Positions 2,627 to 33,289 of a DNA stretch of 33,289 nucleotides are shown here, piece after piece. How positions within the stretch are numbered: position 1 is the stretch's first letter; each line of letters starts with the position of its first letter. Below the pieces are notes generated by a model. That model had not been told where the DNA came from. It made no database searches and was given only the letters and a program-made list of their open reading frames with translations. The stretch is from Candidatus Krumholzibacteriota bacterium (lineage in GTDB: Bacteria; Krumholzibacteriota; Krumholzibacteriia; Krumholzibacteriales; Krumholzibacteriaceae). Location of the stretch: the NCBI GenBank assembly GCA_030613345.1, contig JAUWMD010000002.1, forward strand, positions 1 through 33,289, given 5' to 3'. A program made the translations under genes and the position numbers.

Positions 2627-2629
2627 GTC

Positions 2630-3067: not shown

Positions 3068-3090
3068 TCCGGAGATGAAAGACGGCAGAG

Positions 3091-8099: not shown

Positions 8100-8122
8100 A
8101 CAGGAGAGGAAGGAGACTGACG

Positions 8123-8899: not shown

Positions 8900-8917
8900 G
8901 TAGAATACTCTGCCAGG

Positions 8918-9586: not shown

Positions 9587-9689
9587 ATAGCCGTCTTTTC
9601 GGGAGAATCCCTTTTTCAGTTATCATTCTCACATGTATTAGTATATTATCTCGAGGGAATGCTGGCAAGAGACCAGGGCGGCTGACTTC

Positions 9690-10322: not shown

Positions 10323-10323
10323 T

Positions 10324-10848: not shown

Positions 10849-11270
10849 TGAAGAGATGCCTGAGAACATCGCTTATCCTCCTGATGACAGGTACCTTCGT
10901 ATCCGCCACACAGGCGGCGCTTGCCAGGCCGGGAAGCCCGGAAGGTGAAGGATCCGGCGGGAGCTGCTTCACAGAAAACAGCATGCTCGACCTGTCAGGT
11001 CTGGCCGTCGACACAAGTGCTCTACTGCCGGCGACGGTCAGCCTTTCGGCAGCAGCGGCGGCCGATACGTTCGAGACCTACGAGATAGAGCTGGAGGATG
11101 AAGGCAAAAAGGGGATCAACTACAAGGCCATCATCGGGTTAACGTTAGCCGCAGCGTTTATCGGCTATGCGCTCTATATCATGCTCGTTCCCGACGAAGA
11201 GGAGGAGACACCGGATATTCCGGGCAAGGAGCCTCCAATCGCTCTGATCACGATCCCGTTCGGGGGATGA
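10845..11270 (+). CDS. Hypothetical signal-peptide protein with a C-terminal TM anchor and acidic tail
   Basis: MMKRCLRTSLILLMTGTFVSATQAALA is a signal peptide, and a late TM helix (IIGLTLAAAFIGYALYIMLV) is followed by PDEEEE. The ATG overlaps the nitroreductase stop (ATGA). I recognise no family motif. Confidence 0.5.
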   Translation: MMKRCLRTSLILLMTGTFVSATQAALARPGSPEGEGSGGSCFTENSMLDLSGLAVDTSALLPATVSLSAAAAADTFETYEIELEDEGKKGINYKAIIGLTLAAAFIGYALYIMLVPDEEEETPDIPGKEPPIALITIPFGG

Positions 11271-13260
11271 TCTTGAATGACCTCTTCCCGAACACCCTGA
11301 ATCCTGCCACCAGATCCTCGATCTCGAGCATGAACATGTACATTCCAGGTTCGAGCGAGCTCGCATCCAGCATCATGGCATCCGAAGTCGCGGTCGCGTC
11401 TGTACTCTGCTCGATCGAGCTCAATATGTAGACATGCGGCTCCGGTCTCGAATCGCGGACGCTGGCAGTGATCCAGGCCCATGTCCCGGACGGGCCGTCC
11501 CGACCAGATGACGAGGTGACACTCCAGGTCAGCCTGTATCGTGCGAGGTTCTCCTCGTTCCTCTTCAGATTGTAGATCTCGTAGGAGATGCAGAGTGAGG
11601 ATCCGGTCTCGTACGAAGGCAGCGGATCTACCAGGGCTGTGCAGGTACCATCCTCATCCTGCAGGGAGAACCTGATCCCGCTGAGCGAGAGATGGCCTCC
11701 GCTGAGATCGAGTATGGTCAACGGGCTCCTGTACACTGCCCTGCCCGGCGGTCTCCCGCCGATGATCTCCAGAGCGAAGCTGCTTTCCAGCTGAAGAGGG
11801 GGCAACTCGATGCTGAATGGAAAAACGCACCAAACGACCGAGGTCTTCTCGAAACGATGCAGTGTATCGGGATCGAAGAAGATCTTCTCCGTGAGAAAAA
11901 TTTTCCAGTCGTTGTCGAACAGGGTGAAGTCCAGTTCGTACTCCGCGTCCCGGAAGTCGAGAGTAGAGTCGGGTATCGCCAGCGCCAGGTCGACGCGCGT
12001 TTCGTCTCCCGTTCCCCTGAACTGCACGTTCTCGACACTGACAGGCATGTATCCGTACTCGATGGGGAATGTATACATCTGCTTGATGTTCTGCAGGATT
12101 CCCTCGGTTATCATCGCGTAGTCATGGAACCTGGGGTCGATCGGAATGTGATAGTTACCGCTCAGGAACTCGTCCTGGAAGAAGAGAAGGAACATCTTGT
12201 CGCCGTGGATATATGTCCACACCACGAATGACCCGTCAAGCCCCGAGCCGATGTCGAGGAGGATGGACGGCGGCAGACCGTAGCTGACGAGCGCCCTTCC
12301 GCGGGCTGTCTCGATCCCATCGAGGCCGAGTCTCTCGTTGGTCAGCAGCGACTCTGTCAGAAAGATCCTGATGTAATGCTCGAACCTGCGTTCGTTGAGG
12401 GCGGTCGCCGGAGTGGGATCGTTCATGATCCAGAACTTACGGTTGAAATCGGCGCGGTTCCTCTCGTCGAAATTCTGGTAGGCGTCTCTTTCGTCAATGG
12501 GGAGAAGGAGGGAGACGTCCTCGTACATGTACCTCGTCTCTCCGTCCATCAATGCCAGGGCTGATTCGAATTCAGCCCCGGCCGTCTCGAACCTCGTCCT
12601 GTGCAGGGCGACGCATGCGGAGAGAAGCCGGAATCTGTATGACTCGGGATAATACTCCGCGCCTGTGCGGGCGCAGCCGGCGCACACGTCGAACCGTTCC
12701 TTCAGATAATTGAGCAGCCCGAGATCGAAGAGGGTCTCCTCGTGTCTTCCGTATATGTTGTTCGCCCTGCGGTAATACTTTATCGCGTCGTCGAGGCGCC
12801 TGTCCGAGCACATGTTCTTCAGGTAGAGGTCTTTCTCGATCCGCCCCCTGTGATACCACGCCTGAAAGCATCCCGGATCGAGGTCTATAGCCCGCTCGAG
12901 CGACCTGCAGGCCGACCCTGTGAACTGTCTTGCGTAGAGGGTCAGCCCCCGTTCGACGTGATAAGAGGGATTGTCGGGATCGAGCTCGATAGCCCTGTCG
13001 ATCGCATTCATCGACCTGAGTCTCGATTCGGGAGTCCCCGCCGCGCGATAGCATACGGCAAGCATGCGGAAGAGCTCCGGGTCGTCCGCCTCTGCCCGCA
13101 GAGCCTTCTCGAGGGCCATGATCGTGTCGGCAGCGCATTCCCTCAGCTCGAAGTCGTAAGTATCGATGAAATCGTCATCCAGTGTAGGCGGATGCATTCC
13201 GCTGCACGAAACGGCGAGGAATAAGGCGATAATCGAGATTGCGAGCAGAGACCTCGGCAA
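11248..13260 (-). CDS. TPR-repeat lipoprotein with a (degenerate) GWxTD domain
   Basis: It has a lipoprotein signal (LLAISIIALFLAVSCSG) followed by TPR-like repeats. The GWxTD-family core is FWIMNDPTPATALNERRFEHYIRI ... GIETARGRALVSYGLPPS ... FVVWTY ... FLLFFQDEFLSGNYHI. The tracked GTG start is at 13293. I prefer the in-frame TTG at 13260, which has GGTGGAGG 6 nt upstream and lies downstream of the promoter at 13301-13327. Confidence 0.75.
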   Translation of the reverse strand: MPRSLLAISIIALFLAVSCSGMHPPTLDDDFIDTYDFELRECAADTIMALEKALRAEADDPELFRMLAVCYRAAGTPESRLRSMNAIDRAIELDPDNPSYHVERGLTLYARQFTGSACRSLERAIDLDPGCFQAWYHRGRIEKDLYLKNMCSDRRLDDAIKYYRRANNIYGRHEETLFDLGLLNYLKERFDVCAGCARTGAEYYPESYRFRLLSACVALHRTRFETAGAEFESALALMDGETRYMYEDVSLLLPIDERDAYQNFDERNRADFNRKFWIMNDPTPATALNERRFEHYIRIFLTESLLTNERLGLDGIETARGRALVSYGLPPSILLDIGSGLDGSFVVWTYIHGDKMFLLFFQDEFLSGNYHIPIDPRFHDYAMITEGILQNIKQMYTFPIEYGYMPVSVENVQFRGTGDETRVDLALAIPDSTLDFRDAEYELDFTLFDNDWKIFLTEKIFFDPDTLHRFEKTSVVWCVFPFSIELPPLQLESSFALEIIGGRPPGRAVYRSPLTILDLSGGHLSLSGIRFSLQDEDGTCTALVDPLPSYETGSSLCISYEIYNLKRNEENLARYRLTWSVTSSSGRDGPSGTWAWITASVRDSRPEPHVYILSSIEQSTDATATSDAMMLDASSLEPGMYMFMLEIEDLVAGFRVFGKRSFKIIPRTGS

Positions 13261-19841: not shown

Positions 19842-20420
19842 ATGCTTAAAAGAGAAGTGGTTTACGAGTCTGTACTGGATCATGATTTTCTCGACGAGAT
19901 CTATTCGCTTCCCGGCGGACAAGAGATAAAGAAGTGTATCCAGTGCGGGACATGCAGCGGTTCATGCCCGCAGGGCGCCGTTATGGACTACGCTCCGAGG
20001 AAGATATTCTCCCTCATAAGGGCCGGATTCAGGGACGAGGTGCTCGAATCGAACACTATATGGTACTGCTCGTCGTGCTATACATGCGCTGTGAGATGTC
20101 CCAAGGAGATCAAGATCACCGACGTCATGTACGCCCTCAAACGCATCGCAATCAAGGAAGGCAAGGCGAAGAAAGGGAGGAAAGCGGCGATCCTTTCGAA
20201 TAATTTCGTCAGATTGGTAAACAAGTACGGGCGGAATCACGAGACAGAGCTTATGACCCGTTACATACTGTTTGCGGAGCCGCATCACGCCTTCAATTTC
20301 ATTCCCCAGGGCTGGAAGCTTTTCTCTAACGGCCGCCTGCCCATAATGCCTCACAAGATTAAGAATATCGATCAGTTACGAAAGATCCTGAAGAAGGTCG
20401 ACGAGCTGGGGGAAATATAA
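19842..20420 (+). CDS. hdrC: Heterodisulfide reductase subunit C-like (2x[4Fe-4S]), copy 1
   Basis: Cluster motifs are CIQCGTCSGSCP and CSSCYTCAVRCP, with conserved KITDVMYALKRIA. Its stop overlaps the hdrB start (TAATG). Confidence 0.9.
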   Translation: MLKREVVYESVLDHDFLDEIYSLPGGQEIKKCIQCGTCSGSCPQGAVMDYAPRKIFSLIRAGFRDEVLESNTIWYCSSCYTCAVRCPKEIKITDVMYALKRIAIKEGKAKKGRKAAILSNNFVRLVNKYGRNHETELMTRYILFAEPHHAFNFIPQGWKLFSNGRLPIMPHKIKNIDQLRKILKKVDELGEI

Positions 20421-21319
20421 TGAAGTACACTTATTATCCCGGGTGTTCCGTGAAGGCGACCGCGAATCTTTACCAGGAATCGATCGACTCCGTTACCCCC
20501 TTGCTCGGCATAGAACTCGAGGAACTGGAAGACTGGAACTGCTGCGGAGCGACAGCCTACATGTCTGTCAGGGAGCTGATGAGCTTCGCCATCTCCGCAA
20601 GGAACCTGGCGCTGGCTGAGAAGCACCACCGCGACATCGTAACTCCGTGCAGCGCCTGCTACCTCGTCCTGAAAAAGACCAACCAGTATTTCGCCGATTA
20701 TCCCAATCTGAGAAAGAAGCTCGGCCAGGCTCTCGAAGCCGGCGGTCTGAGCTACAGCGGCAACACGCGGGTCCGGCATATACTCAACGTGATCGTCAAC
20801 GATGTCGGTATGGAAAAGATCGCCGGACTGGTTAAAAAGAAGCTCAAAGGTCTCAACGTCGCTCCTTACTACGGTTGTCAGATCGTCAGGCCTCACTACT
20901 ACGGGTGTGGAGCGGACGAGGAGAATATTGATGATCCGGACAATCCGGTCAGCATGGACAGGTTGATCGAGGCAACTGGAGCCACCTGCGTCAAGTATTC
21001 GATGAAGACGAAATGTTGCGGTTCGTCTTTGATGGGTACCGAGGAAAAGCAGGCTATGAAGCTGTGCATGGAGATCCTGGCCGACGCGGAAAGCAACGGG
21101 GCTCATTGCATCGTGACGATCTGCCCGCTGTGCCAGATGAACCTCGATGTTTACCAGTCGAAGGTAAACAGGCTGTTCGGCACGAAATTCAATATTCCTG
21201 TCATATACTTCACGCAGCTGATAGGGCTGGCGTTGGACAGACCGGCGAAGGAACTCGGGCTGGGAAGGCTCGCGGTGAAGATGACCAGGCCGATGAAACA
21301 GATACTACAGGGAGCGTGA
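20420..21319 (+). CDS. hdrB: Heterodisulfide reductase subunit B-like (two CCG domains), copy 1
   Basis: The first CCG domain is YYPGCS...NCCGA...PCSACY and the second is YYGCQ...KCCGSS...CPLCQ. Confidence 0.92.
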   Translation: MKYTYYPGCSVKATANLYQESIDSVTPLLGIELEELEDWNCCGATAYMSVRELMSFAISARNLALAEKHHRDIVTPCSACYLVLKKTNQYFADYPNLRKKLGQALEAGGLSYSGNTRVRHILNVIVNDVGMEKIAGLVKKKLKGLNVAPYYGCQIVRPHYYGCGADEENIDDPDNPVSMDRLIEATGATCVKYSMKTKCCGSSLMGTEEKQAMKLCMEILADAESNGAHCIVTICPLCQMNLDVYQSKVNRLFGTKFNIPVIYFTQLIGLALDRPAKELGLGRLAVKMTRPMKQILQGA

Positions 21320-21320
21320 T

Positions 21321-23324
21321 ATGTCTGAACGTATTGGTGTATACGTCTGCCACTGCGGTACGAACATCGCCGGCAAGGTAGACATCGACGAGGTGGTCGA
21401 GTTCGCCAAAGGGCTTGATGACGTCACGCTCGTGAGGGAATACAAGTTCATGTGTTCCGATCCCGGGCAGTCGCTCATCCAGAAAGATATCGAGGATGGC
21501 CTGATCAACAGGGTCGTCGTCGCGTCCTGCTCTCCGTTGATGCACGAGAAGACATTCAGGAACGTGTGCACCCGTGGTGGCCTGAACGAATACCTCTTTA
21601 CGATGGCCAATATCCGCGAGCAGTGCTCGTGGGTGCACGTAGATGTCGAACGGACGACGGACAAGGCGAAGGACCTGATAGAAGCGGCTGTAAGAAGGAC
21701 GAGGCTCCAGGAGCCCCTGACGAAGAGGGAAGTCCCGATCAACCCGAGGACTCTGGTCATCGGCGGCGGCATAGCCGGCATACAGGCAGCGCTCGACCTT
21801 GCCGACGCCGGCAAGAATGTCGTTCTCGTCGAGAAGGAGCCCTCGATCGGCGGCCACATGGCCAAGTTCGACAAGACCTTTCCGACGCTCGATTGCTCGG
21901 CATGTATCCTGACACCAAAAATGGTATCGGTCGGCCAGCACGAGAACATCGAGCTGATGTCCTGGTCGGAGGTCGAGGATGTCGGCGGCTATGTCGGAAA
22001 CTTCAACGTCACAGTCCGAAAGAAGGCAAGGTACGTTGACGTGGATCTGTGCAACGGATGCGGCGCCTGCTGGGAGAAGTGCCCGGGAACGCGGGTGCCC
22101 CGCAAGGGCAACGTCCATGAGAAACTCTCGCTCGGACCTGTGACTTCGATATTTATACCTTTCATGCAGGCAGTGCCGGCGATCCCGGTGATAGACGCCG
22201 AAACCTGCATCCGTTTCAAGAACGGCAAGTGCGGTATCTGCGCCGAGGTATGCGAACGCAACGCGATCAAGTACGACATGGAGGACGAGTTGGTCGAGTT
22301 CGAGGTAGGCAACATCATCCTTGCCACCGGCTTCCAGCCCTTCGATCCGGCACAGATCGGGAATTATGGCTACGGGATATTCGACAACGTCCTTACCGCC
22401 GTAGAATTCGAGATAATGAACTGCGCCTCCGGCAACACGGGCGGAAATATCCTGATGGCCGACGGGACCGAACCAAAATCGATCGGAATAGTCCATTGTG
22501 TGGGAAGCCGGGACAAGAATTACAACGAATATTGTTCGAGGGTCTGCTGCATGTACGCCCTGAAATACGCGCATCTTATAAAGGAGAAGATCGATGCGGA
22601 AGTCTACGATTTCTACATCGACATGAGATGTTTCGGCAAGGGGTACGAGGAATTCTATGACAGGCTGCTGGGGGAGGACGTTAGGTTCGTTCGCGGCAAG
22701 GTGGCTGAAGTCACCGAAGTGCATCTGGAGGAGGCTGAAAGGGGAAAACTCGTCGTCAAGGTGGAGGACACGCTGGTCGGTTCGATACGCCGGATCCCGC
22801 TCGACATGGTCGTTCTATGCACTGGTCTCGAAGCGCACGAGACCCTTCCCGCCGTGGCGAATCTCTGCAACGTCAGTATCGGCAAGGACGGTTTTGTCAT
22901 AGAGAAGCATCCCAAGCTCGGCCCCGTTGCCACGGCGACGGACGGGGTTTTTATCGCAGGCGCTTGCCAGTCGCCGAAAGACATCCCCGATACGGTCGCC
23001 CAGGCTTCAGCCGCTTCGAGCGCGGTCCTGTCGATGATCACAAGGGAAAAGATCGAGATCGAATCGGCAACGGCGGAAGTAAACGAGGACAAGTGTTCGG
23101 GCTGCAAGATATGTAACACTCTGTGTCCTTATCTGGCGATCAAGTATGATGAGGAGAAAGGGGTCTCCGTCGTCAACGAGGCTCTTTGCAAGGGTTGCGG
23201 GACATGCGTTGCGGGGTGCCCCAGCAATGCGATATCGGCAAAGCATTTCCAGAACAACCAGATCCTGGCAGAAATCGAGGGGATCCTCCGCAGCAGCAGT
23301 GGACAGGCCGGAATTTTGGCTTGA
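21321..23324 (+). CDS. hdrA: Heterodisulfide reductase subunit A-like FAD/Fe-S flavoprotein, full length, copy 1
   Basis: The N-terminal Cys cluster is VYVCHCGTNIAG..FMCSDPG..SCSPLMHE..REQCSW, and the FAD fold is GGGIAGIQAALDLA..GGHM..FDKTFPTLDCSACILTPKM. The inserted ferredoxin is CNGCGACWEKCP...CIRFKNGKCGICAEVC. The C-terminal ferredoxin is CSGCKICNTLCP...CKGCGTCVAGCP. Confidence 0.93.
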   Translation: MSERIGVYVCHCGTNIAGKVDIDEVVEFAKGLDDVTLVREYKFMCSDPGQSLIQKDIEDGLINRVVVASCSPLMHEKTFRNVCTRGGLNEYLFTMANIREQCSWVHVDVERTTDKAKDLIEAAVRRTRLQEPLTKREVPINPRTLVIGGGIAGIQAALDLADAGKNVVLVEKEPSIGGHMAKFDKTFPTLDCSACILTPKMVSVGQHENIELMSWSEVEDVGGYVGNFNVTVRKKARYVDVDLCNGCGACWEKCPGTRVPRKGNVHEKLSLGPVTSIFIPFMQAVPAIPVIDAETCIRFKNGKCGICAEVCERNAIKYDMEDELVEFEVGNIILATGFQPFDPAQIGNYGYGIFDNVLTAVEFEIMNCASGNTGGNILMADGTEPKSIGIVHCVGSRDKNYNEYCSRVCCMYALKYAHLIKEKIDAEVYDFYIDMRCFGKGYEEFYDRLLGEDVRFVRGKVAEVTEVHLEEAERGKLVVKVEDTLVGSIRRIPLDMVVLCTGLEAHETLPAVANLCNVSIGKDGFVIEKHPKLGPVATATDGVFIAGACQSPKDIPDTVAQASAASSAVLSMITREKIEIESATAEVNEDKCSGCKICNTLCPYLAIKYDEEKGVSVVNEALCKGCGTCVAGCPSNAISAKHFQNNQILAEIEGILRSSSGQAGILA

Positions 23325-23432: not shown

Positions 23433-24005
23433 ATGAATACGCACAAGCTCAAGCAAAAAGCCATCGATAAGGATTTTCTTGATGAGATTGCGCATCTGCC
23501 CGGCGGAGAGCGGATTATCGACTGCTTTCAGTGCGGTACCTGCAGCGGCTCCTGCCCGACAGCTCACGTGATGGATCACACGCCCCGCCGTCTGTTCGCG
23601 ATGGTGAAAGCGGGGTTCCGCGAGGATGTACTCAACAGCAACACATACTGGTACTGCACTTCCTGCTACATATGCACTGTCAGGTGTCCGCGCCAGATAA
23701 AGATCACCGATGTAATGTACGCGTTGAAGCGAATAGCCCTTAAGGAGAGGTACGTTCGGAGAAAGAACGCAGCGGGGGCATTTTACAGTTCCTTCGTCGA
23801 TATTGTCGAGCGGGATGGAAGGAGCTTCGAACCGGAACTGATGGTCCGCTTCATGCTGAAGACCGACCCCACGCTTCTCCTGAAAAATGCTGTGCTGGGG
23901 CTGAAGCTCATGAAACACGGCCGCCTTCCGATTCGCCGTAACAGGATCAAGGCCAGAAACGAGTTGAGAGCGATCATTCGAAAGGCAAAGAGCGAAAGCT
24001 TGTAA
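23433..24005 (+). CDS. hdrC: Heterodisulfide reductase subunit C-like, copy 2
   Basis: Cluster motifs are CFQCGTCSGSCP and CTSCYICTVRCP, with the same KITDVMYALKRIA block as copy 1. It has a TAATG overlap with hdrB2. Confidence 0.9.
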   Translation: MNTHKLKQKAIDKDFLDEIAHLPGGERIIDCFQCGTCSGSCPTAHVMDHTPRRLFAMVKAGFREDVLNSNTYWYCTSCYICTVRCPRQIKITDVMYALKRIALKERYVRRKNAAGAFYSSFVDIVERDGRSFEPELMVRFMLKTDPTLLLKNAVLGLKLMKHGRLPIRRNRIKARNELRAIIRKAKSESL

Positions 24006-24889
24006 TGGCGACGAAACAGAGCTATATCTATTATCCCGGTTGTTCGGCCGAGGCGACGGGAAAGCCGTACGAGATTTCGGCGAGAGCTGTATGCGAGCAC
24101 CTGGATATAGAGCTGAAGGAACTTGCCGACTGGAACTGCTGCGGCGCTACGGCTTATCTCTCCGTCGAGGATATTGCCTCGATGGCGGTAGCCGCGAGAA
24201 ATCTGGCCATCGCCGAATCGACCGGACTCGACCTCATTACGCCATGCAGCGCCTGCTATATCACGCTGAGCAAGGTCGACCACTATTTCGAAGATTATCC
24301 GGACATACGTACGAAGATCAACAACGCACTCTCCGCCGCGGGACTGGAATACAAAGGGGGAGTAAATGTCCGGCACCTCCTGTATGTATTTTCCGAAGAC
24401 ATCGGGATGGAACGCCTCTCCGGCATGGTCAGGGCGGATTTGTCTTTGAGGGTGGCTCCGTACTACGGCTGCCAGGTCGTAAGACCGTTCACCGAAAGGG
24501 ACAGCCCAGATGTCCCGTTCGCGATGGACGAAATCATCTCAGCCCTTGGCGGCGATGTCGTGGATTATCCTCTCAAGACAAAATGCTGCAGCGGAGCGTT
24601 GATCGGCATCGACGAAAAAACCGCTCTGGGTCTCGCGAAGCCGCTCATCGAATGCGCCGTACGCAGCGGCGCCGACTGCATAGTGACATGCTGCCCCCTG
24701 TGTCAGCTCAATCTTGACGCCTACCAGTACAAGATCAACAAGGTATACGGGACGAATTACCATATTCCAGTGTTGTTTTTCACGCAATTGATCGGGCTCG
24801 CGTTCGGTATCGACGAGGGAAGACTCGGTCTGAATATGAACATTGTGCCGTACAGGCCGGCCGCTAGAGCGAAAGGTGCTTCAGGATGA
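24005..24889 (+). CDS. hdrB: Heterodisulfide reductase subunit B-like, copy 2
   Basis: The CCG domains are YYPGCS...NCCGA...PCSACY and YYGCQ...KCCSGA...CPLCQ. It has an ATGA overlap with the next gene. Confidence 0.92.
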   Translation: MATKQSYIYYPGCSAEATGKPYEISARAVCEHLDIELKELADWNCCGATAYLSVEDIASMAVAARNLAIAESTGLDLITPCSACYITLSKVDHYFEDYPDIRTKINNALSAAGLEYKGGVNVRHLLYVFSEDIGMERLSGMVRADLSLRVAPYYGCQVVRPFTERDSPDVPFAMDEIISALGGDVVDYPLKTKCCSGALIGIDEKTALGLAKPLIECAVRSGADCIVTCCPLCQLNLDAYQYKINKVYGTNYHIPVLFFTQLIGLAFGIDEGRLGLNMNIVPYRPAARAKGASG

Positions 24890-25743
24890 CCAAGAATGGA
24901 GCGAAGGAAGAAACGCCACGGATCGGCGTGTACTTGTGTCACTGCGGGTCGAACATCGCCGGGATGGTCAATATCCCGGAGGTTGCCGAGTTCGTGAGGG
25001 AACTGGACAATGTCGCGCTTGTCAGAGACTACCGATTCATGTGTTCGGAACCCGGCCAGGAACTGATCGCCAAGGATATCAAGGAGCATGATCTCGAACG
25101 GGTCGTCGTCGCCGCCTGCAGCCCACTTATGCACGAAAAGACTTTTCGCGAAGCCGTGGAAACGGCCGATCTCAACCGTTATCTCATGCAGATGGCCAAT
25201 GTCAGGGAACATTGCTCCTGGGTGACCGCCGACAGTTCATACGCCACGGAAAAGGCGAAGGCTCTCGTGGCTGCTGCGGTCGGCAAGGCGGTATGGCTGG
25301 AGCCCCTGAAAACCAAGAAAGTCCCTATCCATCCTGATACGCTGATAGTGGGTGGAGGAATAGCCGGTATCCAGGCGGCATTGATCATTGCCGAGGCCGG
25401 CAAGAAGGTGTATCTGGTCGAACGTTCCCCCGCCCTGGGCGGCCATATGTCGCATTTCGACAAAACATTCCCGACGCTGGACTGCGCCGCATGCATACTG
25501 ACTCCGAAGATGGTGGCGGTCGGCAAACATCCGAACGTTGAACTGTTGACATGGTCCGAGGTCGAGGAAGTATCCGGATACATCGGAAATTTCACGATCA
25601 AGATCAGGAAAAAACAGCGCTTCGTCGACGAGGACCGCTGTAACGGTTGCGGAGACTGCTGGGAAGCATGCCCCAGTACGACATCACCCAGAAAGAGAAG
25701 AATCACGATCGAGGGCAGGTTGATCAATGAAAGAGTGCTGTAA
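24886..25743 (+). CDS. hdrA: HdrA-like N-terminal half (N-domain, first part of the FAD fold, first CxxCxxCxxxCP of the inserted ferredoxin); split-gene product
   Basis: It is colinear with HdrA1 aa 1 to ~258: VYLCHCGSNIAG, FMCSEPG, ACSPLMHE, REHCSW, GGGIAGIQAALIIA, GGHM..FDKTFPTLDCAACILTPKM and CNGCGDCWEACP (25639-25674). Homology ends after ..PRK, and a TAA stop lies at 25741-25743. Confidence 0.85.
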   Translation: MTKNGAKEETPRIGVYLCHCGSNIAGMVNIPEVAEFVRELDNVALVRDYRFMCSEPGQELIAKDIKEHDLERVVVAACSPLMHEKTFREAVETADLNRYLMQMANVREHCSWVTADSSYATEKAKALVAAAVGKAVWLEPLKTKKVPIHPDTLIVGGGIAGIQAALIIAEAGKKVYLVERSPALGGHMSHFDKTFPTLDCAACILTPKMVAVGKHPNVELLTWSEVEEVSGYIGNFTIKIRKKQRFVDEDRCNGCGDCWEACPSTTSPRKRRITIEGRLINERVL

Positions 25744-26233
25744 CTCCGGACGAAACATGTCGAAGATCAAGGAAGTGCGGCCCGAGAAAGTGGCGGAGAT
25801 ACTGGAGAGCTTCGAGCATCGTGTCGATTCGCTGATCATGATCCTCCAGGACATCCAGGAAGAGTACCGGTACCTGCCCGAGGATGCGCTTCGGATCGTC
25901 GCTGATGATCTGGATCTTCCGTTATCCCAGCTTTACGAGGTGGCAACGTTCTATCGCTCGTTCAGTCTGGAGCCGCGCGGAACGCACGAGGTGAAGGTCT
26001 GCCTGGGAACGGCCTGTCATCTCAGGGGAGGCCCCATGATCCTTGAAAACTTCGAAAGGGTACTGGGAGTGAAAGCCGGGCAGACGACGCCGGATCTCGA
26101 CTTCACGCTTGAAACGGTAAACTGCGTAGGAGCCTGCGCACTGGCACCGCTGGTACTCGTAGATTCCGATTACCACGGCGAGACGAGACCGAGTAAGGTC
26201 AAGGATATATTGGGCAAGTATTCACAGAAGTAG
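25727..26233 (+). CDS. nuoE: NuoE/HydC-type thioredoxin-like [2Fe-2S] protein
   Basis: The cluster motifs are VCLGTACHLRG (C-x4-C) and NCVGACALAP (C-x3-C). GAGGGCAGG lies 8 nt upstream of the ATG at 25727, and the ATG at 25757 is an alternative start. Confidence 0.88.
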   Translation: MKECCNSGRNMSKIKEVRPEKVAEILESFEHRVDSLIMILQDIQEEYRYLPEDALRIVADDLDLPLSQLYEVATFYRSFSLEPRGTHEVKVCLGTACHLRGGPMILENFERVLGVKAGQTTPDLDFTLETVNCVGACALAPLVLVDSDYHGETRPSKVKDILGKYSQK

Positions 26234-26239
26234 GACGCC

Positions 26240-28141
26240 ATGTCGGTTGAAACGAATATTCGTTTCCAGTCTCCTCCAGAGCTTTCCGCTTTTCGTGACC
26301 GGCTGAGCTCCGAGCGCAGGGATGACATTAACAGGATCACGATATGCGCTGGAACGGGATGTGTCGCCAAGGGAAGCATACGTGTGTTTGAGAAATTTAC
26401 CGAGGCGATCGAATCCCGTCAGCTCGACGCGACGGTCGAGCTGAAGATTTCAGGTTGCCACGGCTTTTGCGAGAATGGCCCCCTCGTCGTCATGAAACCG
26501 GCAGGCATCCTGTACATGGAGGTAAGAGAGCGGGACGTGGATGATATCGTCGAAAAAACAGTTACAACCGGCGAAATCATCGAAAGACTCCTGTACAAGG
26601 ATCCGGTTTCGGGCGAACGAGCACGGAACGAGGATGAGATCCCTTTCTACAAGAAACAGATGCGCGTCGTTCTACGCAATATCGGCAAGATCGATCCCAA
26701 CAACATCGATGATTACATAGCCGTCGGCGGCTATTCCTCGCTCGCCAAGGTTCTTTCCGGTCTCCAGCCTGAAGAGGTCATCTCGATGATCGAGCGATCG
26801 GGGCTGCGCGGACGAGGAGGGGGAGGATTCCCGACGGGCAGGAAATGGAGATCGTGCAGGAATGCACCGGGGGACATCCACTATGTCGTTTGCAACGGTG
26901 ATGAAGGAGATCCCGGAGCGTTCATGGACCGAAGTCTAATGGAAGGGGATCCGCACAGTATTCTGGAAGGAATGATCATCGGCGCATACGCCATCGGTGC
27001 GGAAGACGGGTTCGTTTACGTACGTATGGAGTATCCCCTCGCGATCGAGCGCCTGTTGAATGCGATACGGGATGCGGAGGTGTACGGACTTCTTGGTGGG
27101 AACATACTCGGATCCGGCTTTGATTTCAGGATCAGGATCAACAGGGGGGGCGGAGCGTTCGTGTGCGGTGAGTCTACGGCGCTGATGGCATCTCTGGAAG
27201 GGAGGGCCGGCGAACCCCGGGCGAAATACATACATACCGTCGAGAAGGGCCTCTGGGATAAACCGACGAACCTGAACAACGTCGAAACATGGGCAAATGT
27301 TCCGCCCATCATCGAGCGGGGCCCCGAATGGTTCAGTTCCCTGGGAACTGATGGCAGCAAGGGAACGAAGGTGTTCTCACTCGTTGGCAAGGTGAAGAAC
27401 ACGGGTCTCGTCGAGGTGCCCATGGGAATCACGCTTCGTGAGATCCTTTTCGATATCGGTGGGGGCGTCAAGGGCACGAAAAAATTCAAGGCTGTTCAGA
27501 CTGGCGGCCCATCCGGCGGATGCCTCGTCGTCGATGTAGAGGAGAAGGGAAAGAAGGGCGCGTTCAACTTGATCGATCTCCCGGTAGATTTCGACCGGTT
27601 GACAGAGGTCGGATCGATGATGGGATCCGGCGGGATGATCGTTATGGATGAGGATGACTGCATGGTCGATGTCGCCAAATATTTCCTCAGCTTCCTGAAA
27701 GAGGAATCGTGCGGCAAATGCGTACCGTGCAGAGAGGGAATACGACACATGCTCACGATACTCGACAGGATCACGAACGGAGAGGGAAGCGCGGAGGATC
27801 TGCAGCTGCTCGAGGAGCTTGCTGAAACGATAGCCGAAGCGTCGCTCTGCGCTCTTGGAACCCAGGCGCCAAATCCGATCCTGAGCACTTTGAACTATTT
27901 CAGATCCGAATACGAAGCGCACATATTCGAAGGGAAGTGCCCAGCGGGGGTATGCAAGCAGCTGGTGACATACTCGATATCGGCGGATAACTGTACCGGC
28001 TGCACACTCTGCGCGAAGAACTGTCCGGCCGGTTGCATCAGCGGCGAGCCGAAGGAATTGCACACCCTTGATTCGAGCACATGTATCAAGTGCGGTATCT
28101 GTTACGACGTGTGCAATTTCGACGCGGTGATCAGGAGATAA
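26240..28141 (+). CDS. nuoF: NuoF/HydB-type NAD(H)-binding FMN Fe-S flavoprotein with an N-terminal [2Fe-2S] domain and a C-terminal 2x[4Fe-4S] domain
   Basis: The N-terminal domain carries ICAGTGC...SGCHGFC. The core carries GLRGRGGGGFPTGRKW (FMN), VVCNGDEGDPGAF (NADH) and ESCGKCVPCREG...LCALG (the N3-type cluster). The C-terminus carries CTGCTLCAKNCP and CIKCGICYDVC. Confidence 0.92.
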   Translation: MSVETNIRFQSPPELSAFRDRLSSERRDDINRITICAGTGCVAKGSIRVFEKFTEAIESRQLDATVELKISGCHGFCENGPLVVMKPAGILYMEVRERDVDDIVEKTVTTGEIIERLLYKDPVSGERARNEDEIPFYKKQMRVVLRNIGKIDPNNIDDYIAVGGYSSLAKVLSGLQPEEVISMIERSGLRGRGGGGFPTGRKWRSCRNAPGDIHYVVCNGDEGDPGAFMDRSLMEGDPHSILEGMIIGAYAIGAEDGFVYVRMEYPLAIERLLNAIRDAEVYGLLGGNILGSGFDFRIRINRGGGAFVCGESTALMASLEGRAGEPRAKYIHTVEKGLWDKPTNLNNVETWANVPPIIERGPEWFSSLGTDGSKGTKVFSLVGKVKNTGLVEVPMGITLREILFDIGGGVKGTKKFKAVQTGGPSGGCLVVDVEEKGKKGAFNLIDLPVDFDRLTEVGSMMGSGGMIVMDEDDCMVDVAKYFLSFLKEESCGKCVPCREGIRHMLTILDRITNGEGSAEDLQLLEELAETIAEASLCALGTQAPNPILSTLNYFRSEYEAHIFEGKCPAGVCKQLVTYSISADNCTGCTLCAKNCPAGCISGEPKELHTLDSSTCIKCGICYDVCNFDAVIRR

Positions 28142-28149
28142 GGATTTAG

Positions 28150-29925
28150 ATGGAAGAAAAGGAAGCAAGTCAGGTTCTCGTGCATCTGGAAGTCGACGGG
28201 AAATCCGTATCCCTCGCTGAGGGTTCCACGATCCTCGATGCGGCCAAACTGCTCGGCGTACAAATCCCGACGCTGTGCTATACGCCTCTGGTCGAGCCAT
28301 ACGCCGCATGCCGCCTCTGTTCCGTCGAGGTCGAGTATCCCCGCGGCGGAGGCAAGGTCGTGACCGCCTGCAATTACCAGGTATGGGACGGTATCAAGGT
28401 GCGCACGGACACCGACAAGATACGTCGTATTCGCGGCATGATCGTAGAAATGCTCCTCGCGCGATGCCCGGATATCCAGGTACTGAAAGATCTCGCCGAA
28501 GAATACGGTATCGAGAAGGTTCGTCTCGAGAAGCAGGAAGAGGGGTGCATTCTCTGCGGCCTCTGCGTGCGGGTCTGCGCAGAGCTAGTCGGGGCGCATG
28601 CGATCTCATTTGCGGGCAGAGGCCTCGACCGCCGGGTAGCGACTCCGTACGACAAGTCGAGTGACGCCTGTATCGCGTGCGGTGCATGCGCACTGGTATG
28701 CCCGACGAAGATCATTCATGTCGAGGATCAGGAAGGTCGCGAAATCATCCATGAAGAACTCTCTCTGGGACCTTCCAAAGCGATCACCCTGCCGTTTATG
28801 CAGGCGGTGCCGAATATACCATATATCGACACGGAACATTGCATACATTTCCAGACAGGTGAGTGTGGGTACTGCGCGAAGATCTGCGACAGGGATGCGA
28901 TCGATTACGAATTGCAGGAAGAAACGATCGAGGTGGATGTGGGGAATATAATCATGGCGACGGGCTTCGAACTGTTCGACCCTTCCGTAATGGGACAATA
29001 CGGCTACGGGCGCCTGAAAAACGTGGTAACCTCGCTCGAATTCGAGCATCTGAACTGCGCCGCGGGACCAACCGGCGGACGGATCCTGATGACCGACGGC
29101 GGAGAGCCGTCGAGTGTCGGAATCATACACTGCGTCGGAAGCAGGGACGAGAATTATTACAAGTACTGTTCCCGGGTATGCTGCATGTATGCGCTGAAAT
29201 ACGCGCACCTGATAAAGGAAAAGACAGATGCGGACGTCTATAGTTTTTACATCGATATGAGATGCTTCGGAAAGGGATACGAGGAATTCTACCACAGGCT
29301 GCTCGAGGAAGGGGTCCAGTTCATCAGGGGACGGGCGGCGGAGATCACCGATTACGCGATAGATTCCGACGAAGAGGGAAAGCTGATTGTCCTCTGCGAG
29401 GATACCCTGATAGGCGCCCTTCGCCGGATACCTCTCGATATGGTGGTGTTGTGCTCCGCCATGAAATCGAATGAGGATGCCAAGGAGCTGTCGCGAATAT
29501 TCTCGTGCAGCCTGGGAAGCGATGGCTTCTTCATTGAGAAACATCCGAAACTCGCACCGGTATCCACTACTTCCGACGGAGTATTCATCGCCGGCGGCTG
29601 TCAGGGTCCGAAGGATATTCCGGATACCGTGGCTCAGGGAGCGGCGGCTGCAGCCGAAGTCCTTTCGCTGATTGACAGGAAAGAAGTCGAGGTCGAAGCG
29701 GCGATCGCTGTCGTGGACGAGGATCGATGCTCCGGATGCAAACTGTGCAACACGCTCTGTCCGTACCTCGCTGTCAAGTACGATGAGGAAAAAGGCGTTT
29801 CCGTGGTGAATGAAGCGCTCTGCAAGGGATGCGGTACCTGTGCCGCGGGATGTCCGAGTAACGCCATATCCGCGAGACACTTCGAGAACAGACAGATATT
29901 CGCCGAGATAGAAGGTCTTCTTTGA
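28150..29925 (+). CDS. hdrA: Fusion protein: NuoG/HydA-N-terminal-type [2Fe-2S] + 2x[4Fe-4S] module (aa 1-200) joined to the HdrA C-terminal half (aa ~201-591)
   Basis: The N-terminal module carries CYTPLVEPYAACRLCSVEV..TACNY, CILCGLCVRVC and CIACGACALVCP (28669-28704). From HEELSLGP (nt 28750) it is colinear with HdrA1 from HEKLSLGP (nt 22116) to the C-terminus. Shared blocks are CIHFQTGECGYCAKIC (28840-28887), IHCVGSRD, CSRVCCMYALKYAHLIKEK, DMRCFGKGYEEFY, GVFIAGGCQGPKDIPDTVAQ and CSGCKLCNTLCP...CKGCGTCAAGCP. Confidence 0.88.
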   Translation: MEEKEASQVLVHLEVDGKSVSLAEGSTILDAAKLLGVQIPTLCYTPLVEPYAACRLCSVEVEYPRGGGKVVTACNYQVWDGIKVRTDTDKIRRIRGMIVEMLLARCPDIQVLKDLAEEYGIEKVRLEKQEEGCILCGLCVRVCAELVGAHAISFAGRGLDRRVATPYDKSSDACIACGACALVCPTKIIHVEDQEGREIIHEELSLGPSKAITLPFMQAVPNIPYIDTEHCIHFQTGECGYCAKICDRDAIDYELQEETIEVDVGNIIMATGFELFDPSVMGQYGYGRLKNVVTSLEFEHLNCAAGPTGGRILMTDGGEPSSVGIIHCVGSRDENYYKYCSRVCCMYALKYAHLIKEKTDADVYSFYIDMRCFGKGYEEFYHRLLEEGVQFIRGRAAEITDYAIDSDEEGKLIVLCEDTLIGALRRIPLDMVVLCSAMKSNEDAKELSRIFSCSLGSDGFFIEKHPKLAPVSTTSDGVFIAGGCQGPKDIPDTVAQGAAAAAEVLSLIDRKEVEVEAAIAVVDEDRCSGCKLCNTLCPYLAVKYDEEKGVSVVNEALCKGCGTCAAGCPSNAISARHFENRQIFAEIEGLL

Positions 29926-29962: not shown

Positions 29963-30448
29963 ATGAGTTTCGAGCCTAGGATAGTCGGATTCCTCTGCAA
30001 CTGGTGTTCTTACACGGGGGCCGATCTCGCCGGGACGGCAAGGATCAAGTACGCTCACAACATCAGGTCTATCAGAGTGATGTGCAGCGGCAGGATCGAG
30101 CCGACCTACATCATGAAGGCGCTCTATGAAGGCGCGGATGGGGTGCTTATCGCTGGTTGTCATCCTGGAGATTGCCACTATCAGGAAGGCAATTACAAGG
30201 CGCTCAGGCGGTACATGCTTCTGAAACGTATCCTGTCCGAATACGGCATCGAACCGGAGCGCCTCAGGCTCGAATGGGTGGCGGCATCGGAGGGAGAACG
30301 ATTCGCCAGGATCGTTGACGATTTCACAGAGCAGTTACGGAAACTTGGTCCGCTTGCCATAAAGGAATCGATCGCCGAAGCGATGAAGGACGACATTGAT
30401 CCTCATGAAGCTCACAACGTAGAAAGCGGTGAGGCAGATGAAGCTTAA
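29963..30448 (+). CDS. mvhD: MvhD/FlpD-type hydrogenase delta subunit ([2Fe-2S] electron-transfer protein)
   Basis: It carries IVGFLCNWCSYTGADLAG...IRVMCSGRIEP...GADGVLIAGCHPGDCHYQEGN, the canonical MvhD pattern. Confidence 0.9.
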   Translation: MSFEPRIVGFLCNWCSYTGADLAGTARIKYAHNIRSIRVMCSGRIEPTYIMKALYEGADGVLIAGCHPGDCHYQEGNYKALRRYMLLKRILSEYGIEPERLRLEWVAASEGERFARIVDDFTEQLRKLGPLAIKESIAEAMKDDIDPHEAHNVESGEADEA

Positions 30449-31391
30449 AGGCGGTATCTACTGGGGAGCTGGATGTGGCGGTTGCGATGTCGCCGTGCTC
30501 GACCTCCATGAAAAAATCCTCGATGTAGCCGAGAAGATGGACCTGCTGTTCTGGCCCATCGCACTCGATTTCAAATACGACGATGTCCGGGCCATGGAAG
30601 ACGCCGAGTTCGATATCGTCCTGTACAACGGGGCGATCAGAAATTCTGAAAACGAAGAGATGGCCAAACTCCTCAGGCGCAAGTCGAAGACCATGGTCGC
30701 CCTCGGAGCCTGTGCTCATATCGGCGGGCTGCCCAGCCTGGCCAACTATCACACGAAGCAGTCAGTGTTGGAGCGAGTCTACTTGGAGACTGAATCGAAC
30801 GAAAATCCCGACGGCACAATGCCGTTGGAGAGGTCGACTGTGGACGGAAACGAGCTTGAGCTTCCGAGATTCTACAACACTGTCAAGACGCTCGATCAGG
30901 TCGTCGACGTTGATTACTATATTCCCGGTTGCCCACCCGTTCCTGAACAGATATTTTCTGCCCTTTCCGCCGTTTTCATCGGTGAGCTTCCCCCGAAAGG
31001 GTCTGTGATCGGGGCCGGTACTAAAACCCTCTGCGACGAGTGCCCGCACGAGAAGGAAGAGAAAGAGATAAGCATTATCAAGCGGCCTCTCGAGATGATC
31101 CCCGAGCCGGGGAAATGCCTGCTCGAACAGGGTCTCATCTGTCTCGGGCCGGTCACGAGGGAGGGGTGCGGCGCCAGGTGCATCAACTCCGGTGTGCCGT
31201 GCAGGGGATGTTACGGTCCCCTTGATGACGTATACGATCAGGGAGTCAAGATGGTCAGCGCGCTCGCCTCGGTCCTGGAACCGAAGGAAGAGAAAGAGAT
31301 CGACAAGGTGCTCGATGGGATAGTCGATCCGCTCCGGACATTTCACAGGTTCAGCACTGCTGCTTCGATACTGAGGAGGAAAAAGGTATGA
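30438..31391 (+). CDS. mvhG: [NiFe]-hydrogenase small subunit, group 3 (MvhG-type)
   Basis: Motifs are GCGGCDVAVLD, GACAHIGG, YIPGCPP, CDECPH and CLGPVTREGCGARCINSGVPCRGCYGP. The ATG at 30438 is preferred, and the tracked GTG at 30429 is also possible. The gene overlaps the end of mvhD. Confidence 0.9.
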   Translation: MKLKGGIYWGAGCGGCDVAVLDLHEKILDVAEKMDLLFWPIALDFKYDDVRAMEDAEFDIVLYNGAIRNSENEEMAKLLRRKSKTMVALGACAHIGGLPSLANYHTKQSVLERVYLETESNENPDGTMPLERSTVDGNELELPRFYNTVKTLDQVVDVDYYIPGCPPVPEQIFSALSAVFIGELPPKGSVIGAGTKTLCDECPHEKEEKEISIIKRPLEMIPEPGKCLLEQGLICLGPVTREGCGARCINSGVPCRGCYGPLDDVYDQGVKMVSALASVLEPKEEKEIDKVLDGIVDPLRTFHRFSTAASILRRKKV

Positions 31392-32848
31392 AGCGCGTAG
31401 ATATAGATCCGATCACACGCCTCGAAGGCCATGGGAAGATAAGCATATTCATCAACGACGACGGATCGGTCGAGAACGCATACCTTCAGATTCCGGAGTT
31501 GAGGGGGTTCGAGAAATTCGTAGAGGGTCTCCCTGTGGAGGAGATCCCCCGGATCATGCCTAGGATATGCGGCGTTTGCCCGGCGGCCCATCACATGGCC
31601 GCGGGGAAAGCCGTTGACAACGTGTTTAGAGTGGAGATTCCGCTGGTAGCTAAAAAACTCCGGGAAATGTATTACATGGCGCATTATATCCATAGCCACG
31701 CCGCTCATTTCTACGCTCTCGCGGCTCCGGATTTCGTTCTCGGACCACAGGCCCCGAAGGCCGAAAGAAATGTTCTCGGGCTGATAAACAAGGTCGGATT
31801 GAAGCTCGGCAGGGAAGTGCTCAGGCAGAGAGGGATTTCGCAGGAAATACAGATTATGATAGGAGGCCGCGCCACGCATCCCGTATGGAACATTCCCGGC
31901 GGAGTGACGCGTGCACTCAGCGACGAGAACGCAGAGAAGGTCAAGAGTCTTGCCGCTGAACAGGTCGGCTTCGCAGAGCTGAGCCTGAAGTTGTTCAACG
32001 ATCTCGTATTGAGCAACAGCGACTATCTCGAGCTTATAATGGGCGATATATTCGAACAGGTGACCAACTACATGGGGCTGGTCGACGATGACAATAAGGT
32101 GAATTTCTACCATGGGAAGGTACGGGTTACGGATATAAACGGGGAAGAGTTGTTCAAGTACTCCGAACCGGAATACCTCGATTACATAGCCGAACATGTC
32201 GAACCTTGGTCCTACCTTAAATTCCCCTATATCAAGGACAGGGGCTGGAAAGGATTCGTCGAGGGCGAAGGGACTCCTCTCTTCCAGGCCAATCCGCTTC
32301 CGCGGCTCAATGCGGCGGACGGGATGGCGACACCGAAGGCTCAGGAAGAGTACGAGAAGATGTTCGAGACCGTCGGCGGAAAACCGTGCCACAAGCTGAT
32401 GGTGAACCACTGGGCGAGGCTCATAGAGATGCTCTATGCCGCCGAGCGGATGCAGGAGTTGATCAACGATCCGGAGATCACAGATCCGAACGTAAGGGTG
32501 ATCCCATCGACCACGCCGAGAGAGGGTGTGGGAATCGTCGAGGCCCCTCGCGGAACACTCACGCATCACTACTGGACCGACGAGAACGGGATCGTGACCA
32601 AGGCAAACCTGATCGTCGGGACGACGAATAACAACGCCTCGATAAACATGGCCGTCAAAAAGGCGGCCCAGAATCTCATCAAGCCGGGCGGCGAAGTGAC
32701 CGAAGGGCTGCTCAACATGGTCGAGATGGCGTTCCGTCTGTACGATCCGTGCTTCAGCTGCGCTACGCACAGTCTGCCCGGAAAGATGCCGCTTACAGTC
32801 GAGATACGCGATCTCGACGGCGAGATACTGAACGAGGTATCGAGGTAG
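31388..32848 (+). CDS. mvhA: [NiFe]-hydrogenase large subunit, group 3c (MvhA-type)
   Basis: It has N-terminal RLEGHGKI and RICGVCPAAH (L1). The C-terminal DPCFSCATH (L2) is followed by a 25-aa extension, which would be the protease substrate. It has an ATGA overlap with mvhG. Confidence 0.93.
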   Translation: MKRVDIDPITRLEGHGKISIFINDDGSVENAYLQIPELRGFEKFVEGLPVEEIPRIMPRICGVCPAAHHMAAGKAVDNVFRVEIPLVAKKLREMYYMAHYIHSHAAHFYALAAPDFVLGPQAPKAERNVLGLINKVGLKLGREVLRQRGISQEIQIMIGGRATHPVWNIPGGVTRALSDENAEKVKSLAAEQVGFAELSLKLFNDLVLSNSDYLELIMGDIFEQVTNYMGLVDDDNKVNFYHGKVRVTDINGEELFKYSEPEYLDYIAEHVEPWSYLKFPYIKDRGWKGFVEGEGTPLFQANPLPRLNAADGMATPKAQEEYEKMFETVGGKPCHKLMVNHWARLIEMLYAAERMQELINDPEITDPNVRVIPSTTPREGVGIVEAPRGTLTHHYWTDENGIVTKANLIVGTTNNNASINMAVKKAAQNLIKPGGEVTEGLLNMVEMAFRLYDPCFSCATHSLPGKMPLTVEIRDLDGEILNEVSR

Positions 32849-32878
32849 CGCATCGTGGAAGATTCCGGGAGTAATCCG

Positions 32879-33289
32879 ATGAAAACGGTTATCATCGGTC
32901 TGGGTAATACCGTCCTGAGCGACGACGGCGCCGGGGTGTATGTCGCGCGCATGTTATCCGGGAGGTTCGGAGACGACGTAACCGTTATCGAGACGGAAAG
33001 CGCAGGGATGAACCTGATGGAGATGCTCGGAGGCTTCGACAGGGCTGTTCTGGTCGACGCGATCCTTCTCGACGGCGAGGAGGCGGGTACGGTATTCCGG
33101 CTGCGTGCAGACGACCTGAAGATCACCCCCAGACTGTCTTCATGCCACGACATCGATTTAGTCACCGCCCTCGAGCTGGGAAGGCAGCTCGGAATGCATA
33201 TGCCCGGCGAGGTGACGATATTCGCCATACAGGGAGAAGACATGCTCACTCTCTACGAGGGCTGTACCCGGAAGGTGGAAGAGTCGCTT
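32879..33289 (+). CDS. Hydrogenase maturation endopeptidase (HycI/HybD/FrhD family), 3' partial; not present in the supplied ORF track
   Basis: My own translation from the ATG at 32879 (GGGAG 7 nt upstream) gives MKTVIIGLGNTVLSDDGAGVYVARML...AVLVDAILLDGEEAGTVFRL...SSCHDIDLVTALELGR... It is open for 137 codons to the window edge. GLGN..(L)SDDG.G and the downstream D...H are the family metal-ligand signatures. Confidence 0.85.
   Translation, partial: MKTVIIGLGNTVLSDDGAGVYVARMLSGRFGDDVTVIETESAGMNLMEMLGGFDRAVLVDAILLDGEEAGTVFRLRADDLKITPRLSSCHDIDLVTALELGRQLGMHMPGEVTIFAIQGEDMLTLYEGCTRKVEESL

Follow-up and report, generated by a model that had tools for sequence, protein, structure and literature searches.

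The window analysed here is a stretch of 33,289 nucleotides from a Candidatus Krumholzibacteriota bacterium (assembly GCA_030613345.1, contig JAUWMD010000002.1, positions 1 to 33,289), and it carries a second hdrA gene (hdrA2) whose halves are separated by a stop at 25741-25743 plus a second, three-gene energy-splitting module (bfuC-bfuB-bfuA). Four cysteine half-motifs, one at the C-terminal side of the N-terminal fragment and three in a BfuA-HdrA fusion protein, very probably make up two nested dicluster ferredoxin domains: an inner one that closes within the fusion, and an outer one whose ligands come from two chains. The bfuC-bfuB-bfuA cassette would sit in the loop between the halves of the HdrA inserted ferredoxin. 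The inner domain would combine M1' and M2' of the fusion as BfuA clusters A2/A4, and the outer domain would combine N-fragment M1 and fusion M2 as HdrA clusters HA5/HA6. The two proteins, the half-motifs and the adjoining elements are as follows.

24886..25743, + strand: hdrA2-N (N-fragment, 285 aa), with the N-terminal Fe-S domain, the first half of the flavin adenine dinucleotide (FAD)-binding domain, C200/C203, M1 and a tail
25639..25674, + strand: M1, CNGCGDCWEACP, N-fragment C252/255/258/262, first half of the HdrA inserted ferredoxin
25687..25740, + strand: P-x-x-R-x-I...I tail at the C-terminus of the N-fragment, a probable beta-hairpin
28150..29925, + strand: bfuA::hdrA2-C fusion (591 aa)
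28276..28371, + strand: BfuA [2Fe-2S] ligands C43, C54, C57 and C74 (cluster A1; PF13510), kept in 120, 119, 120 and 120 of 120 relatives
28546..28578, + strand: M1', CILCGLCVRVC, fusion C133/136/139/143, first half of the BfuA ferredoxin
28669..28704, + strand: M2', CIACGACALVCP, fusion C174/177/180/184, second half of the BfuA ferredoxin
28840..28887, + strand: M2, CIHFQTGECGYCAKIC, fusion C231/239/242/246 (CIHFQTGEC…C), second half of the HdrA inserted ferredoxin

Four half-motifs and their partners

An earlier prediction for this DNA (the original prediction) had placed three of these motifs correctly (25639-25674, 28669-28704 and 28840-28887) and had rightly described both motifs of the intact paralogue HdrA1 (21321-23324). 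Its count of three half-motifs for one domain was a miscount: there are four for two domains, because CILCGLCVRVC (28546-28578), which it left out, also requires a partner. Nor does M1 stand at the very end of the N-fragment, since 22 more residues lie downstream and are conserved (P268 in 118/120 relatives, R271 in 115/120, I/V273 in 117/120 and I/V280 in 115/120). These counts refer to the best 120 of 6417 matches to the N-fragment, three of which are pieces of intact HdrA; the corresponding fusion set is the best 120 of 1041 matches to fusion residues 1–275.

The sequence around each motif indicates the domain to which it belongs. The Y/F-V-D strand of HdrA precedes M1 in 115 of 117 N-fragments, and CP-T-x-x-I never follows it; the first motif of intact HdrA has the same context (strand in 49/50, CP-T-x-x-I in 0/50). 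M2' is preceded by an HdrA-type strand in 0/120 fusions and carries the BfuA-type CP-T-x-x-I in 117/120. M1' lies 41 residues upstream of M2' in the fusion. BfuA proteins at large were sampled as 150 representatives at 50% clustering, 132 of them without the junction pattern and mostly HdrA-free BfuA; the sorting used a simple pattern, so that 2 standalone proteins were counted with the 18 'fusions', and the 132 include some fusions. M1' is present in 132/132 and M2' in 127/132 of the junction-less class, and their separation is 40–42 residues in 124 of the 129 measurable proteins, matching the fusions. In HdrA-free BfuA the two motifs have only each other. M2' very probably belongs with M1', and CILCGLCVRVC with CIACGACALVCP is, as judged by sequence context and predicted fold, a closed BfuA/NuoG-type ferredoxin. 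M2' does lie about 15 residues before the point where HdrA homology resumes, as had been proposed, but this spacing is not that of HdrA1, in which the distance from CP to HExLSLGP is 10 residues compared with 15 in the fusion. Likewise, the last Cys is 33 residues from the Q of QAVP in 115/120 fusions versus 23–28 in 45/50 intact HdrA proteins (5 not measurable).

Conservation was the check that the original prediction had proposed for the M1 cysteines, and no loss was found in 120/120 N-fragment relatives. All 12 Cys of M1', M2' and M2 are likewise invariant in 120/120 fusion relatives, and the non-ligand Cys of the fusion are variable (C106 in 76/120, C303 in 20/120). For a less biased test, 114 loci were examined that had been retrieved via the fusion and not via the N-fragment. 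Besides the window, 23 of them carry the fusion, 12 of these include the upstream N-fragment, and the M1 Cys are kept in 12/12; therefore, M1 is not decaying. The N-fragment pair C200 and C203 (25483-25494) is also invariant in 120/120 relatives, and the matching Cys pair of methanogen HdrA binds an unknown ligand, as described in PMC13580544.

The division of hdrA2 is itself a conserved feature. The same junction occurs in all of the best 120 fusion homologues, and 117/120 of the best N-fragment homologues stop 21–46 residues past M1. A frameshift or assembly error was considered and ruled out, as the split recurs across many genomes. Compared with HdrA1, the N-fragment shows 63% identity (166/262) over HdrA1 residues 4–265 and the fusion 66% across its HdrA part, which covers HdrA1 residues 264–656. 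The full type I HdrA domain set (N-terminal Fe-S domain, FAD/thioredoxin-reductase domain, inserted and C-terminal ferredoxins) is reached only with both genes summed, and neither hdrA2 product holds both inserted-ferredoxin motifs in cis, as a single-chain type I HdrA does.

Nested relatives and predicted structures

Natural rearrangements of the same parts occur among the relatives. The single-chain order M1-[M1'-M2']-M2, with a whole BfuA inside, is found in P0245-P0249, P0271, P0281 and P0361, and the single chain P0294 has two additional motifs, probably from a BfuB ferredoxin. In the L071 locus, a long N-fragment, M1 included, is fused to BfuC. In other family relatives, a tandem-type HdrA is split at the same place, and its roughly 125-residue piece, with M1 at the end, is joined to BfuC; 3 of the 4 regions retrieved show this M1-BfuC architecture, and a contig end interrupts the fourth. 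In the L063 locus (6563-11464), a nested single-chain HdrA stands directly after hdrC and hdrB, with no bfuC or bfuB within the locus.

A census of 509 collected proteins, which are not an independent sample, included 206 with the HdrA junction. The 56 junction proteins with an FAD motif upstream contain one CxxCxxCxxxC motif before M2 (46 proteins), three (9 rows, 8 distinct) or five (1), and none of these 56 has an even number (0, 2 or 4). The remaining 150, without an upstream FAD motif, have two motifs (146) or a single HdrA-type motif (4). Such a pattern would be expected if M1 stays and inserts arrive as whole ferredoxins. The P0245 group falls within starred clades of split forms (96–98) in quick trees of both halves, and P0271/P0281 form a lineage separate from it; nesting therefore arose more than once by deletion. 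In the quick tree of the C-terminal core, which does not include P0271 and P0281, split and intact forms are intermixed; the starred branches require at least 5 changes, and so the tree gives no order of events.

The fusion alone was modelled from a 117-row alignment with a mean pLDDT (the score of the predicted local distance difference test) of 85, confident through residue 200 and with pLDDT 50–84 at residues 201–250. HydA/NuoG chains align about 182 residues of this model at 1.7–2.0 Å, spanning M1' and M2' (8A6T_A, Z 20.3; 7V2C_M, model residues 8–193), and among solved chains fusion residues 12–194 are closest to WorA/BfuA 9MQX_A (E 8e-39). HdrA chains align to the model only from residue 200–202, and model residues 201–591 match HdrA 5ODC_A with Z 28.9 and an rmsd (root-mean-square deviation) of 5.0 over 379 aligned residues.

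The nested region of the L063 protein was modelled with AlphaFold (256 aa, mean pLDDT 73) from 41 rows with no intact HdrA rows among them, the tail rows of L039 and L071 having been shortened or dropped before folding. The top match of this model in both structure searches is the inserted ferredoxin of HdrA (5ODI_A residues 239–311, Z 8.3, rmsd 2.8, 70 aligned, 51% identity), and 8RVU_a gives Z 8.7 and rmsd 2.7; both matches span model residues 1–256. Residue 239 of 5ODI_A is the arginine of the strand preceding the first motif. The inner ferredoxin is matched separately (8A6T_A, model 129–192; 6TG9_A, 130–199). The predicted topology supports the view that, in the nested relative, the two ends of the modelled region come together to re-form the HdrA ferredoxin. 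Additionally, many simple ferredoxins align from model residue 23–28 to about 195 (1DUR, 55/55). Judged from alignment ranges only, this suggests that the tail strand after M1 occupies the first-strand position of the BfuA ferredoxin, and by hypothesis the proteins of the window may be arranged in the same way.

A two-chain prediction of N-fragment residues 240–285 and fusion residues 122–262 with four 4Fe-4S clusters scored 0.57, and the best of three controls scored 0.02. Between runs, at least 89% of the contacts are the same, with a partner pLDDT of at least 71. In the benchmark, the mark for this score was reached by 116/157 solved and 2/215 mismatched pairs, but only 18 of the 157 solved pairs reached it with a score of 0.60 or below, as did both mismatches. 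The multimer prediction called for earlier thus gives weak support for the pairing, as a score and not as contacts or Cys-Cys distances.

Alternative pairings and the proposed electron path

Of the two readings that the original prediction had offered, the conservation of M1, the nested relatives and the topology of the nested relative's model support the one in which two polypeptides ligate the clusters in trans. Several points weigh against it. The homologue sets are the top matches for each query and are biased toward motif retention, 11 of the 23 fusion loci lack the N-fragment in the DNA examined (these loci apparently end short upstream), and conservation by itself cannot separate the nested from a swapped wiring. 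The nested model is that of a relative, in cis, and only 7 of its 41 rows are nested; its HdrA-half segments have pLDDT 51–81, and Z values of 8.3–8.7 are middling. Structural alignments report the first and last residue only, not Cys-Cys distances, and HdrA and HydA are already known to AlphaFold, which does not model metals. For the two-chain prediction, the two parts of a divided gene can reach the mark because they resemble structures already solved, a score of 0.57 falls in a band more often wrong than right without prior information, and no contacts are given.

The first alternative accepts the nested topology but supposes that the trans domain carries only part of its load (a single cluster, a 3Fe cluster or Zn) or has a mainly structural role, giving a shared Hdr/Bfu scaffold with no direct wire through HA5/HA6. 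The lower model confidence for the HdrA-half segments is in its favour, as is the retention of the BfuA ferredoxin in nested relatives after loss of BfuBC, which implies that the domain is useful without the Bfu core, for example for docking a soluble carrier. However, none of the eight Cys varies and their spacing is unchanged, and in methanogens this domain is described as the electron exit to polyferredoxins at 9.8 Å (PMC12350162, PMC13580544), and we regard this alternative as very improbable. A swapped wiring, with M2'-M2 paired in cis and M1-M1' in trans, would use all 16 Cys and place the trans-ligated domain on the Bfu side. It fits the conservation counts and the odd-number census equally well, the N-fragment tail appears to touch the BfuA ferredoxin in the nested model, and the two-chain prediction yielded no contacts to exclude the swap. 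Against it, the M1'-M2' segment is collinear with closed BfuA/HydA ferredoxins at unchanged spacing, the models of the fusion alone and of the nested relative both give the nested arrangement, and a swap would join two first-half motifs and two second-half motifs; we regard it as less probable still. Least probable of all is the other reading of the original prediction, in which the NuoG-type motif has taken the place of the native one. M2' and M2 would then form one ferredoxin within the fusion, leaving M1 spare or free to bind something else and M1' with no partner. Local alignments do place M2' on the HdrA first motif, and M2 follows it in the same chain at a distance of 46 residues, but eight invariant Cys would be left partnerless, M2' has its own partner M1' as in HdrA-free BfuA and a BfuA-type context and spacing unlike those of the HdrA first motif, M2' alone before M2 was found in 0/206 junction-bearing proteins, and the model of the fusion alone, to which this pairing was open in cis, did not adopt it, HdrA structures aligning only from about residue 201.

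In 2x[4Fe-4S] ferredoxin folds, each cluster takes three ligands from one motif and one from the other (the 3+1 rule). Applied to the trans-ligated outer domain of the nested arrangement, this rule would give one cluster ligated by N-fragment C252, C255 and C258 with fusion C246, and another ligated by fusion C231, C239 and C242 with N-fragment C262. The pieces must assemble because the FAD-binding domain is divided between N-fragment and fusion, and assembly around this shared domain would hold M1 and M2 in their native positions. Half-ferredoxin homodimers bind two clusters (PMC12648291), and MvhB contains ferredoxins inserted within ferredoxins (PMC13580544); trans ligation and nesting are therefore both feasible.

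The observations cover the identity and conservation of the motifs, the order of the genes, the naturally re-fused forms and the topology of the models; ligation of the clusters, contact between them, the direction of flow and bifurcation are inferred. Low-potential electrons of methanogens are reported to pass from FAD via HA3, HA5 and HA6 to MvhB at 9.8 Å (PMC13580544, PMC12350162), and Type 2 Bfu enzymes are reported to take up electrons through A4-A2-A1-B1 (PMC12318220). The proposed FAD-to-FMN path (FMN, flavin mononucleotide) follows from joining the methanogen HdrA exit path to the Type 2 Bfu entry path. Electrons from H2 would pass through MvhAG and MvhD to the HdrA FAD, the high-potential electron would go to HdrCB, and the low-potential electron would travel via HA3, HA5, HA6, A4, A2, A1 and B1 to the FMN of BfuB, where it would be shared between NAD+ (nicotinamide adenine dinucleotide) and ferredoxin; alternatively, the whole path may run in reverse, making H2. 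In its most extended form, which we hold tentatively and at somewhat less than even confidence, the complex would be a serial double bifurcator. HdrA low-potential electrons would pass through the two-chain ferredoxin into Bfu and be split again between NAD+ and ferredoxin, or the system would run backwards and evolve H2 from NADH, reduced ferredoxin and thiol. The wire would exist only when the HdrA pieces meet, the tail hairpin of the N-fragment would clamp the BfuA ferredoxin, and excision of the cassette, in part or in full, would have happened several times, each time with complete ferredoxin pairs left behind. The nested assignment as a whole would give the cofactor wiring of a widespread Hdr-Bfu-hydrogenase complex with residue-level predictions of the Cys for each cluster, and if true it describes a natural two-cluster ferredoxin formed from two different proteins inside an enzyme.

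The locus, its origin and comparison with known systems

The genes form one co-oriented block on the + strand in the order hdrC1, hdrB1, hdrA1, hdrC2, hdrB2, hdrA2-N, bfuC, bfuB, fusion, mvhD, mvhG, mvhA and maturation protease. Those outside the two hdrA2 genes are as follows.

19842-21319, + strand: hdrC1/hdrB1, Fer4_8 and CCG families
21321..23324, + strand: hdrA1, intact paralogue with M1 and M2 in a single chain
23433..24889, + strand: hdrC2 and hdrB2, Fer4_8 and CCG families
25757..26233, + strand: bfuC, nuoE-like [2Fe-2S] subunit, PF01257, four Cys (start at 25757 or 25727)
26240..28141, + strand: bfuB, nuoF-like FMN/NAD subunit, PF01512, PF10589, PF01257 and Fer4
29963..33289, + strand: mvhD, mvhG and mvhA ([NiFe] hydrogenase) and a maturation protease that runs into the window end; PF02662, PF01058, PF00374 and PF01750

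The NuoE/F-like pair has the extra motifs of the bifurcating BfuC/BfuB type as defined in PMC9304861. The motifs of BfuB are an N-terminal [2Fe-2S] set, B1, a Zn-type His/Cys set and a C-terminal 2x[4Fe-4S] set. At the motif level, BfuB has the FMN/NAD site and the B1–B5 ligands and BfuC has one [2Fe-2S], as in Type 2 enzymes, and the BfuA part has the A1, A2 and A4 ligands of that type, with A3/A5 absent. The fusion region between the [2Fe-2S] set and the ferredoxin motifs shows a gap relative to HydA, and its sole Cys is the variable C106. The bifurcation residues E356 and K409 (numbering of PMC12054007) correspond by alignment to fusion E299 and K350 and are invariant in 117 rows. In the ferredoxin loop of HdrA1 (window 22050-22170) and its close relatives, the usual intact-HdrA sequence EFDxGLxxRK is replaced, and CWxxCP...PRK, a feature of the N-fragment, is joined to the HExLxLGP of the fusion. 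Elsewhere in the window (40-4542) are genes for an H+-pyrophosphatase, a YchF GTPase and an archease-RtcB ligase pair.

Related loci vary around the same core. Five extra genes lie between hdrA-N and bfuC in L001 (2542-6581), placing the HdrA halves about 7 kb apart; we take this insert, by eye, to be a sensor/regulatory cassette. Similar gaps of 3.8 kb occur in L037, L038, L040, L056, L061 and L104. BfuB-like open reading frames (ORFs) of more than 1000 residues are present in L038 (6918-9986) and L047 (6779-9949), and two tandem bfuB copies in L044 (2175-7104). In L048, L057, L068 and L103, HdrA appears as two ORFs with a break near residue 194/201, at the second Cys of the conserved pair, where the break is possibly a selenocysteine codon instead of a true split.

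Same-genus relatives give some indication of the origin of the block. hdrB-hdrA-mvhD are adjacent in 6/6 of them at the best-matching locus, and no full-length counterpart of the 591-residue fusion is present among the matches listed for 40 relatives. Compared with same-genus relatives, the last 60 codons of the fusion gene agree at 80–82% and those of hdrA1 at 75–78%; upstream of them, the values are 56–76% for the fusion and 76–90% for hdrA1. The signal is modest and would fit acquisition of the block through recombination at the resident hdrA's 3' end. The end of hdrA1 (window 23290-23324) extends 9 residues beyond that of same-genus relatives, and together with the 3' end of the fusion gene (~29740-29925, which resembles the relatives' hdrA more closely than hdrA1 does) it is a possible integration scar. 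The placement of HdrA1 among N-fragments (Shimodaira-Hasegawa-like approximate likelihood-ratio test 87–92, unstarred) is no more than suggestive of a re-fused descendant of the split form. The same genome (G000) contains three more bfuC/bfuB/bfuA-like loci and two more HdrA-like pieces, on contigs C193, C232, C255, C62 and C147.

All of the modules are already known, and a solved complex in which both types are coupled already exists. Literature searches returned no account of the split HdrA/Bfu operon, although Appel et al. 2021 (the main HdrA survey) and the supplementary tables on Bfu and benzoyl-CoA reductases could already list it. In the accessible parts of the sources, the HdrA fusions catalogued in PMC11237513 do not include this one, and an Mvh/Hdr-type Bfu is not among the Bfu types of PMC9304861. 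The MvhAGD-HdrABC complex of methanogens (PDB 5ODC/5ODI, 8RVU, 7BKB) has the same set of genes (hdrCBA-mvhDGA) and the same HdrA domains, counted here over both pieces, its E356 and K409 have invariant equivalents, and its inserted ferredoxin is described as the low-potential exit (PMC13580544, PMC12350162). In contrast, HdrA here consists of two polypeptides cut inside that ferredoxin, the docking place of MvhB or FmdF has a BfuA ferredoxin fused to it, and the host is a bacterium. Type 2 BfuABC enzymes such as WorABCSL (PDB 9MQX) likewise have a BfuA with A1, A2 and A4 only, but WorA ends in a Zn finger and a helix docking WorS, whereas the present chain runs on into half an HdrA.

HdrL (type III HdrA) also carries an NAD(P)H module inserted in the HdrA inserted ferredoxin, but according to PMC12054007 it has a GltD domain in cis, in one polypeptide and with no Bfu core. 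The insertion point of HdrL lies later in the ferredoxin, at or within the second motif, and the insert in our locus is of the BfuC, BfuB and BfuA type, with no GltD domain in cis. Semidoxins also share two clusters between two chains, but they are described in PMC12648291 as short homodimeric peptides, mostly designed, whereas the present pair would be a heterodimer embedded in a large enzyme. The natural deletion series of split form, N-fragment-BfuC fusion, nested single chain and intact protein offers ready constructs for tracing HdrA low-potential electrons. Class II benzoyl-CoA reductase, Bam[(BC)2DEFGHI]2, is alike in holding HydBC/Bfu and HdrA-type modules in one complex (bioRxiv 10.64898/2026.04.10.717634; PMC9304861), and no split of BamE is described in the accessible part of the preprint. 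A family scan of 31 proteins of the window, which did not extend to bamB elsewhere in the genome, found no tungsten BamBC protein. In that enzyme, BamBC is reported to be fed by the inserted ferredoxin, and the input side, with BamF and the C-terminal ferredoxin, by BamGHI (bioRxiv 10.64898/2026.04.10.717634). The order here is reversed, with MvhAG at the input and Bfu fused at the inserted ferredoxin, so that the Bfu module would sit on the HdrA low-potential exit. If true, this arrangement represents a second way to couple two bifurcating modules, with Bfu on the HdrA output and not on its input.

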